DNA of 40,352 bases, taken from sequence record PQ850600.1, one strand, 5' to 3'. The notes below the pieces were generated by a model. That model had not been told where the DNA came from. It worked only from the letters and a program-made list of their open reading frames with translations, and did no database searches. This DNA comes from Escherichia phage Dewey. Within the stretch, counting starts at the first letter, position 1, and each line of letters opens with the position of its first letter. A program made the translations under genes and the position numbers. Shown piece after piece: positions 5,058-5,579 of this stretch.

Positions 5058-5579
5058 TTATTTCGATATCGTGATGTTGTTTTCCTCGTCAAACTTTCTG
5101 ATTACTTCTTTCGCCTCTTCGAATGAAGAACATACTTTTTGCACTCTTGCATTAAGCAGTCGCTTATGAGCGATCCATCTTTTCCGCGTGTTGCAAAAGT
5201 AAACTCCAGATATTCCGCTGGAGTTATTTTTAGATAGTTTGATTCTATTCCTTTGGTTTGCTGATTTTTTCACAAGACGAAGATTTTCAATTCTGTTGTC
5301 GTGGCGAATCCCATTTATATGGTCAATTTCCATGCCTTCTGGAATATCTCCGTTAAACATTACCCATACGATGCGGTGTGCTAGCCACTTAATGCCGTTA
5401 ATTCTTATGCGGATATATCCATTGCTTTCTAAAAGACCAGCAACTTTCCCAGCGTGTTTTGCATTCCAAACGTTGTGATAGTTGCGATTCTTTTTGTTGT
5501 TGAAAAATTCAGAGCTTCTGGCTTTCCAAACCAAAGAACCATCGCGGTATTCGAAGTATTCATTCAGTTCCATGCTCAT
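5058..5579 (-). CDS. HNH homing-type endonuclease (HNH_3 plus AP2-like domain)
   Basis: 173 aa; EIDHINGIRHDNRIENLRLV HNH motif and SGISGVYF...KRWIAHKR AP2-like segment; opposite strand between scaffold and coat genes; AT-rich. Confidence 0.8.
   Translation of the reverse strand: MSMELNEYFEYRDGSLVWKARSSEFFNNKKNRNYHNVWNAKHAGKVAGLLESNGYIRIRINGIKWLAHRIVWVMFNGDIPEGMEIDHINGIRHDNRIENLRLVKKSANQRNRIKLSKNNSSGISGVYFCNTRKRWIAHKRLLNARVQKVCSSFEEAKEVIRKFDEENNITISK

Follow-up and report, generated by a model that had tools for sequence, protein, structure and literature searches.

An antisense endonuclease gene between the scaffold and coat genes

The window analyzed here is the whole 40,352-nt stretch of DNA in sequence record PQ850600.1, from Escherichia phage Dewey. 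Dewey is a Lederbergvirus isolated together with Huey and Louie, and its genome announcement does not discuss the endonuclease gene (PMC12243541). The gene is an ATG-initiated ORF of 173 aa on the minus strand (5058..5579). It is flanked on the left by the gene for the head scaffolding protein (4146..5057, plus strand; PHROG_648, E = 4.9e-102) and on the right by the gene for the major capsid (coat) protein (5647..6942, plus strand; PHROG_283, E = 2e-111; PHROG_22632, E = 3e-151). The scaffold stop codon TAA occupies 5055-5057 and the reverse-strand stop TTA of the endonuclease gene begins at 5058 (5058-5060), so that the two stops abut at 5057/5058, as the original prediction had it. The coat gene starts 67 nt past the other end of the ORF. 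ORF and spacer together form a block of 589 bp (5058..5646, minus strand), which is missing as a whole in close relatives and is treated here as a mobile cassette. The gene had also been described as AT-rich and antisense, and this holds: the GC content of the cassette is 0.377, compared with 0.532 for the scaffold gene, 0.507 for the coat gene, and 0.48 for the whole genome. Along the sequence, the GC content dips to 0.39-0.40 over 5001-5600 between flanks of 0.50-0.55.

The sister phage Louie (98.9% identity over 4000-7000) carries the same gene with the annotation "HNH endonuclease". The ATG-initiated ORF was intact in 18 out of 18 close copies, each with at most one amino acid difference. 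An alternative start lies at the third codon (5573), where the spacing from an AGGG Shine-Dalgarno-like sequence is better. A terminator-like hairpin at 5202-5225 was considered and rejected as a feature of the gene, as the orthologs are without it; the SGISG codons probably give rise to it incidentally.

The central part of the protein is an HNH_3 His-Me finger (residues 66-110; 5250..5384, minus strand), as seen in the Pfam match, in invariant alignment columns, and in the structural model. The match to Pfam HNH_3 (PF13392) covers model positions 2-46 of 46 and, with 78 bits, exceeds the curated cut-off of 24.8 (E = 3.9e-22). Among the PHROG families, PHROG_99, "HNH endonuclease", was matched with E = 1.3e-50. 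Among 47 homologues, the residues D86, H87, N99, and N108 are invariant and align to the DH...N...N residues of I-HmuI. In the AlphaFold (AF2) model (mean pLDDT 88.2), residues 83-111 form a beta-beta-alpha element (strands 83-87 and 100-104, helix 105-111), so the D-H general base and the two Asn lie inside a beta-beta-alpha fold, judged from sequence and model together. The preceding region (residues 1-65; 5385..5579, minus strand) is rich in beta structure, with AF2 strands at 9-18 and 56-66, and resembles the DNA-binding region of I-HmuI according to profile, AF2, and Foldseek comparisons. A profile of the 47 homologues matched I-HmuI (1U3E) over both the N-terminal and the HNH parts (E = 2.8e-8, profile positions 23-109), and the same structure (1u3e) ranked first in Foldseek with a probability of 0.98.

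The C-terminal part (residues 121-166; 5082..5219, minus strand) is an AP2-like domain of three strands and a helix, recognized by profile, homologues, AF2, and Foldseek. The original prediction of an HNH-AP2 nuclease was confirmed outright for the HNH part, whereas the AP2 part did not reach the Pfam threshold in the single protein (PF00847, E = 0.019; 15.7 bits vs 33.3, residues 121-139 only) and emerged at the level of family and fold. Pfam AP2 was matched individually by 28 of the 47 homologues (E<=0.01; best 1.4e-11), and positions 103-157 of the family profile matched the AP2/ERF structures of WRI1 (7WQ5, E = 1.3e-5) and TEM1 (7ET4, E = 1.7e-3). In the AF2 model, strands 126-129, 134-140, and 145-150 are followed by a helix at 153-166, and AP2-domain structures came after I-HmuI in Foldseek (3igm, probability 0.90; 6sy0). 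Model and profile thus agree on a three-stranded antiparallel sheet packed on one helix with profile-level homology to AP2/ERF domains. Because the support consists of profile and fold matches and the AP2 sequence is degenerate in this member, the label "HNH-AP2" is valid for family and fold but not for the single sequence. The activity of the enzyme as an endonuclease, and its target site, are predictions.

An NCBIfam scan of the protein returned nothing specific. PADLOC matches were limited to generic "HEase" models (E = 1.2e-11 and 1.8e-7); PADLOC detected neither a defence-system-specific model nor a partner gene, the neighbours being scaffold and coat.

The original prediction had pointed to a paralog of the same architecture at 37703..38254 (plus strand, 183 aa), located in the variable region that extends from the Rz spanin gene of the lysis cassette to a KilA-N-type gene. 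Relationship and HNH_3 domain are clear (39% identity to the 5058..5579 protein, E = 5e-29; HNH_3, E = 1.5e-18), while its AP2 match is again below the Pfam threshold (E = 0.0014; 19.3 bits, below 33.3). The related phage Bas106 is without the paralog, and homology to it returns at a 39-bp block (38235..38273). The paralog with these flanks was found in one of 5,426 E. coli genomes (ET650, 93.5% identity), and in some prophages the equivalent place is taken by a GIY-YIG nuclease gene. Probably, the paralog represents a second, independent homing-endonuclease insertion.

Several candidate expression signals were located in the 67-nt spacer. A possible extended -10 promoter element, TGCTATACT, was read from the sequence at 5612..5620 (minus strand), and a -35-like hexamer, TTGAAT, lies 20 nt upstream of it (5638..5643, minus strand). 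A sigma-70 consensus scan with a 16-18-nt spacer rule called no promoter in the spacer, because TTGAAT is 20 nt away. The -10 hexamer is kept as TATACT or TATAAT in all four lineages that carry the gene, i.e. that of Dewey and the divergent lineages L195, L200, and L201, and the L201 spacer reads TTGCAT-17 nt-TATAAT. The endonuclease gene would accordingly have a promoter of the extended -10 type to drive it. Overlapping the -10 element is an inverted repeat (hairpin, 5587..5623), which occurs at the same place in all four lineages with differing stem sequences. Its folding z-scores on the endonuclease sense strand were -2.65, -3.10, -4.22, and -3.13 for the four lineages, and weaker on the other strand.

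The coat-proximal end of the spacer (5630..5646, plus strand) reads AGTAAGGTATTCAATAT and resembles the scaffold 3′ end, AATAAAGGAATTCGATA, with about 13 of 17 positions matching by manual count. This pseudo-junction includes a new Shine-Dalgarno sequence for the coat gene, AAGG (5633..5636), 10 nt upstream of the coat ATG. In genomes with an empty site, the coat ribosome-binding site is inside the scaffold 3′ end, and AAGG replaces it in occupied ones.

Distribution and diversity of the cassette

In four phages (APC_JM3.2, CurroJimenez/Bas106, IME10, and HZ41), the block is absent although the flanks are about 98% identical, and the missing segment comprises exactly 589 bp (5058..5646). At the empty junction, the scaffold TAA overlaps the coat ATG by one base (TAATG; ...GGAATTCGATAATGGC...), and the scaffold 3′ end is identical in genomes without the endonuclease gene. 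The site is therefore polymorphic for presence and absence at a precise position among near-identical genomes. The original prediction had read the gene as the invasion of a homing endonuclease. The contiguous scaffold and coat genes of P22-like relatives, lacking exactly these 589 bp, support that reading; moreover, the gene is not universal at this site, its composition is not host-like, and its nuclease motif is intact.

A scaffold/coat pair of this type was detected in prophages of 218 out of 5,426 complete E. coli genomes. The site was occupied in 20 of 230 E. coli prophage copies (8.7%); the other copies, as listed, align in two pieces and are 590 bp shorter, which leaves about 200 empty prophages. 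IMG/VR contained 12 viral contigs with a copy that is at least 99% identical and located at the same site. About 107 cultured P22-like phages share this coat family, and of these Louie was the only one found to have the spacer and the gene. A description of this insertion in P22-like phages was not found in the literature searched.

Nucleotide diversity (pi) across 14 distinct cassette loci was 0.0039 for the cassette, 0.0105 for the scaffold gene, and 0.0200 for the coat gene, which puts the diversity of the cassette 2.7-5 times below that of the flanks. The flanks of carriers are as diverse as those of non-carriers. For nearly every carrier, the closest neighbour by flank sequence is cassette-free, and carriers are polyphyletic on their flanks. 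Low diversity on many backgrounds indicates that the cassette is younger than the surrounding polymorphism. When the flanks were divided into 50-nt bins, carriers and non-carriers were differentiated only in the first coat bin (0.278 between groups, 0.003-0.004 within); in all other bins on both sides, divergence between the groups equalled diversity within them. Both co-conversion and disagreement between gene and flank phylogenies, as expected for a free-standing homing endonuclease, are hence present at this locus. Low cassette diversity on many backgrounds is a prediction of homing with short conversion tracts, but frequent ordinary recombination could also yield it.

Junction alleles and divergent lineages

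The differentiated bin corresponds to a patch of 39 nt at the 5′ end of the coat gene (5647..5685, plus strand), termed allele C, which is always linked to the cassette. Compared with the common empty allele A, every carrier shows 14 substitutions in coat nt 3-38, with three amino acid changes among them (A2T, N4K, and L13I). In the rest of the coat gene only 17-28 of 1257 positions differ, and the scaffold gene shows practically no difference over its last 118 nt. The most informative comparison is a near-isogenic pair consisting of L138, an IMG/VR contig with the cassette, and Bas106, which is without it. The insert again measures 589 bp. To the left of the junction, 2689 nt are identical; to the right, the 14-substitution patch is followed by the next difference only at coat nt 383, with 4 differences in 1,461 nt. 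At this local rate, 14 differences in 36 nt have a probability of about 4e-32. As the two genomes are otherwise near-identical around the junction, cassette and patch were gained or lost as one unit.

Three haplotypes were distinguished over coat nt 1-45: (i) the common allele A without cassette (ATGGCATTAAATGAAGGTCAACTGGTCACGTATGCTCTGGATGAA); (ii) the rare allele B, likewise without cassette (ATGGCATTAAAAGAAGGGCAGTTAGTTACTTACGCTATCGATGAA); and (iii) allele C with cassette (ATGACTCTCAAAGAAGGGCAGTTAGTTACTTACGCTATCGATGAA). Allele B equals A over nt 1-9 and C from nt 10 onwards. In the pooled sample, all 17 cassette loci were of type C (one with a single reverted base) and no cassette-free locus was fully C. 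Within IMG/VR, 11 contigs with exact C and the variant L010 are exactly the 12 gene-bearing contigs. Allele B was counted in eight E. coli genomes and three IMG/VR contigs, an example being a prophage of E. coli ECONIH6, and is confined to one coat sub-lineage, whose divergence outside the patch amounts to only about 3.5%. Scanning IMG/VR with a degenerate pattern, together with exact-allele scans, revealed haplotypes A, B, and C only and no A/C mosaics with varied conversion end-points. With one cassette-plus-patch haplotype and no series of end-points, a more specific signature of repeated homing is absent.

Allele B was also considered as the ancestral background and as a deletion product of C, and both readings were set aside. 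C does not contain ATGGCATTA, and B is therefore not derivable from C alone. More probably, B arose from one A x C conversion event that left the cassette uncopied. Possibly, it constitutes an empty site that resists cleavage. Coat codons 5-7 (E-G-Q) are of interest in this respect: they read GAAGGTCAA in all gene-free junctions examined (A, P22, and SEN22) and GAAGGGCAG in all four gene-bearing lineages, in which synonymous sites are otherwise saturated, and also in allele B. These codons are the best candidate for a determinant of target recognition and immunity, as a correlation among lineages that are not independent. Linkage of the patch is no proof of immunity, since the 39-nt tract is only 64% identical and its linkage to the cassette is expected whatever the selection.

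Outside the close copies, we identified the orthologs P0002, P0003, and P0004 on metagenomic contigs, with 82, 74, and 59% identity, respectively, all of them antisense between P22-type scaffold and P22-type coat genes. The stops abut again in two of the divergent lineages, and the spacers are 60-67 nt long. Amino acid identities to Dewey for scaffold, endonuclease, and coat proteins were 74, 74, and 74% in L195; 76, 82, and 89% in L200; and 51, 61, and 69% in L201. The endonuclease and its flanks have thus diverged in parallel, which makes the family an old resident of the scaffold-coat niche. This parallel divergence fits long vertical residence as well as homing within lineages. Compared with L200, the endonuclease gene shows pN = 0.10 and pS = 0.69 (dN/dS about 0.055; 0.065 for the coat gene); in the comparisons with L195 and L201, synonymous sites have reached saturation, but pN does not exceed 0.17-0.26. 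Such substitution patterns characterize an ORF under purifying selection as a working protein.

The patch itself closely resembles the L200 lineage. Across the boundary between spacer end and patch, Dewey reads …AAAGAAAGTAAGGTATTCAATAT|ATGACTCTC… and L200 reads …AAAGAAAGTAAGGTATTGAAT|ATGACTCTT…, and L200 is matched at 37 of 45 positions by allele C and at 26 of 45 by allele A. Given this resemblance, we interpret the patch as flanking sequence of the donor, presumably an unsampled relative of L200, which reached the E. coli lineage together with the cassette by co-conversion. A search of species-representative genomes for the donor with a four-ortholog profile gave nothing above about 49% identity, and blastn with the L200 coat gene found no member of the L200 lineage among cultured phages.

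Probable homing and alternative explanations

Taken together, we consider it likely that 5058..5646 is a free-standing HNH_3/AP2 homing endonuclease cassette, inserted antisense exactly between the scaffold stop and the coat start. I-HmuI-like enzymes belong to the same class. In such a scheme, transcription of the gene would proceed from a promoter of its own, of the extended -10 type and located in the 67-nt spacer, and the enzyme, acting as a monomer, would bind a long asymmetric site via its N-terminal and AP2-like domains. Its nick or cut in the empty allele would fall on the scaffold/coat junction or close to it, with GAAGGTCAA of coat codons 5-7 as the best candidate determinant. In a mixed infection, or when a lysogen is superinfected, repair of the broken genome would use an occupied one as template, and cassette and short co-conversion tract would be copied along. 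An occupied allele would be immune because the insert splits the site and the 14 substitutions are present. By supplying a replacement Shine-Dalgarno sequence, the cassette would make up for the coat signal that normally lies inside the scaffold 3′ end with its overlapping TAATG.

Four groups of known nucleases are comparable. I-HmuI, the HNH nicking enzyme of Bacillus phage SPO1 (1U3E), has the same order of a beta-rich N-terminal DNA-binding region and an HNH_3 His-Me finger with D-H...N...N. However, it is encoded in a group I intron and ends in a helix-turn-helix, whereas the Dewey protein is free-standing with an AP2-like C-terminus, and the two are only about 23% identical. The free-standing genes SegG, SegE, and MobE of T4 encode homing endonucleases associated with marker exclusion and co-conversion. 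They share with the Dewey gene an intergenic position, a tract of donor flank, and polymorphisms that presumably protect the occupied allele from its own enzyme. They differ in that the Seg enzymes belong to the GIY-YIG family and MobE to another HNH subtype, and in that the Dewey tract spans at most 39 nt on one side with none detectable on the other and the gene is antisense to the operon. HNH-AP2 homing endonucleases, with an N-terminal HNH and a C-terminal AP2 domain, have been described from phages, cyanobacteria, and protists, including the ICP1-like "IPA-HNH" proteins; their genes are free-standing, often beside capsid or other essential genes and at boundaries of genetic exchange (PMC10448857). 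The IPA-HNH protein of ICP1 is too divergent for Pfam HNH_3 (PMC10448857), in contrast to the strong match of the Dewey protein, which further differs in belonging to a temperate P22-like phage and in its degenerate AP2 sequence. The nearest relatives outside the niche are HNH genes of T1-like (Drexlerviridae) and related coliphages, with 40-49% identity over 80-98% of the length. Their annotations name HNH or homing endonucleases, and like the Dewey gene they often adjoin head morphogenesis genes; unlike it, they belong to virulent siphoviruses, occupy different insertion sites, and remain below 50% identity.

A more far-reaching proposal is that the nuclease, besides being selfish, serves as a prophage exclusion weapon, expressed in lysogens from its own promoter and cutting incoming P22-like phages with allele A. 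Allele B would then be a naturally selected escape variant, an empty site with only the carrier-type coat codons acquired. We regard this as unlikely; if it were true, an essential capsid gene would hold, in its first 40 nt, a compact natural system of attack, immunity, and escape. As part of this proposal, the very short and one-sided conversion tract might indicate homing initiated by a nick rather than by a double-strand break.

Flank polyphyly and a short linked tract could also have their source in ordinary homologous recombination, which is very frequent in P22-like phages. On this basis, the cassette may be a passive, "moron-like" passenger that was acquired in one illegitimate event and spread by general homologous recombination, the nuclease taking no part; the gene may be kept for another function, or its decay may be still to come. 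The single cassette-plus-patch haplotype without variety of end-points would agree with a passenger, as would the low occupancy of about 9%, the flank mosaicism that is pervasive in these phages even at a distance from the cassette, and the way in which endonuclease divergence tracks that of the flanks between lineages. A passenger does not account well for strong purifying selection and an intact catalytic motif despite saturated synonymous sites, for the filling of an identical, precise niche in four lineages, or for a cassette that is 2.7-5 times less diverse than its flanks on many backgrounds, and the protein belongs to a classic family of phage homing endonucleases. We judge a passive passenger to be quite improbable.

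Even less probable, in our assessment, is a domesticated or dual-use nuclease that, produced by the prophage or at an early stage of infection, would cut gene-free P22-like competitors, so that the carrier benefits besides or instead of homing. The candidate sigma-70-type promoter is independent of the late operon, which makes expression in lysogens conceivable; long persistence under purifying selection is equally in line with a benefit to the carrier, and allele B, empty with carrier-type codons 5-7, would fit an escape allele. Against this, PADLOC finds generic homing-endonuclease models only, about 91% of related prophages lack the gene, and the mechanism overlaps with homing (as in marker exclusion) rather than replacing it.

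P22-like phages package their DNA by a headful mechanism. An accessory HNH protein of the HK97 gp74 type that stimulates terminase cleavage might be suspected from the location in the morphogenesis cluster and from the paralog, which on the circular map immediately precedes the terminase genes, but such a role is effectively refuted by viable close relatives without the gene (Bas106, IME10, and APC_JM3.2) and hardly credible given that the gene is antisense to the packaging operon, is neither conserved in all members nor co-oriented with terminase and portal genes, and encodes HNH_3, AP2, and I-HmuI-like DNA-binding parts instead of a minimal HNH.

A homing endonuclease cassette remains the reading we prefer. 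HNH-AP2 homing endonucleases of phages are already described and the gene is already annotated as "HNH endonuclease" in relatives, so that the assignment alone would be routine annotation; its value is that of a clean and tractable natural example. Culturable isolates are available both as carriers (Dewey and Louie) and, with Bas106, as a cassette-free phage that is near-isogenic around the site. The insert is mapped to the base, about 40 nt of coat sequence contain the candidate determinants of target and immunity, and a rare intermediate allele, B, exists in nature. To our knowledge, homing endonucleases have been little studied in the temperate model-phage family of P22. Homing, the length of the conversion tract, self-immunity, and what it costs to uncouple the translation of coat from that of scaffold are all directly testable here.

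Hairpins within the endonuclease cassette

The 67-nt spacer between the endonuclease and coat genes contains a hairpin, located at 5587..5623 in the window and at the same position in the three metagenomic-contig lineages with diverged endonuclease orthologs (L195:885-951, L200:1384-1449, and L201:2776-2835). In all four diverged lineages this position is shared, and it overlaps a -10-like hexamer. The stem sequence differs from lineage to lineage; the comparison comprises four sequences, fewer than a covariation test needs. Folding was stronger on the endonuclease sense strand in every lineage (z-scores of -2.65 to -4.22). 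On this sense strand, the Shine-Dalgarno region of the endonuclease gene and the complement of that of the coat gene take part in the outer pairing. The spacer hairpin may serve in translational or transcriptional control.

A terminator-like hairpin (5202..5225), with an 8-bp stem followed by a T-run on the late-operon strand and mirrored on the other strand, was noted within the antisense endonuclease ORF. This hairpin was not conserved among the endonuclease orthologs, and probably arises incidentally from the SGISG codons.

A rare coat allele at the empty site

Allele B, a rare 5′ coat allele found at sites without the cassette (coat nt 1-45 in L070-L072, L158, L168, and L269; E. coli records H191-H198), is a composite: nt 1-9 of the coat gene have the bases of allele A, the common empty-site type, and nt 10-38 are of the carrier type. 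The allele occurs on one coat sub-lineage. Most members of this sub-lineage also possess one additional codon, a CAT insertion around nt 415 of the coat gene. Partial gene conversion without transfer of the cassette is a candidate origin of allele B, as is another route.

Mosaicism and variable slots

Whole-genome comparison of the window with Bas106, a near relative lacking the cassette, revealed 99.6-99.7% identity across 1..5058 and 14748..20987, whereas much of the tail/ejection-protein region and of the early region was only 80-96% identical or could not be aligned. This pattern is typical P22-like mosaicism, and it limits how far homing can be inferred from the scattering of carriers over different flank backgrounds.

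The region 3′ of the coat gene (7126..7200, compared with Bas106 and the cassette-carrying sister phage Louie) is another variable slot of the head-gene cluster. Positional alignment with Louie is lost from about 7160 onwards, due to an indel or a replacement, and the small hypothetical genes annotated there differ among the relatives, with a repeat_region annotated as well. A short ORF directly 3′ of the coat gene (6939..7241) contains a repeat of the (Pro-Glu)n / SQSQSQ type.

The paralogous HNH_3/AP2-like gene (37703..38254) lies in a slot of variable content (37513..38273) after the Rz spanin gene; we compared this slot with Bas106 and E. coli genomes. Bas106 carries unrelated sequence at this slot, and its homology to the window restarts at a 39-bp block (38235..38273) directly 5′ of the next gene. 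The paralog with the same flanks was found in only one of 5,426 E. coli genomes. In other prophages the equivalent position is occupied by a GIY-YIG nuclease gene, so the slot appears to be a hotspot for homing endonucleases of different families.
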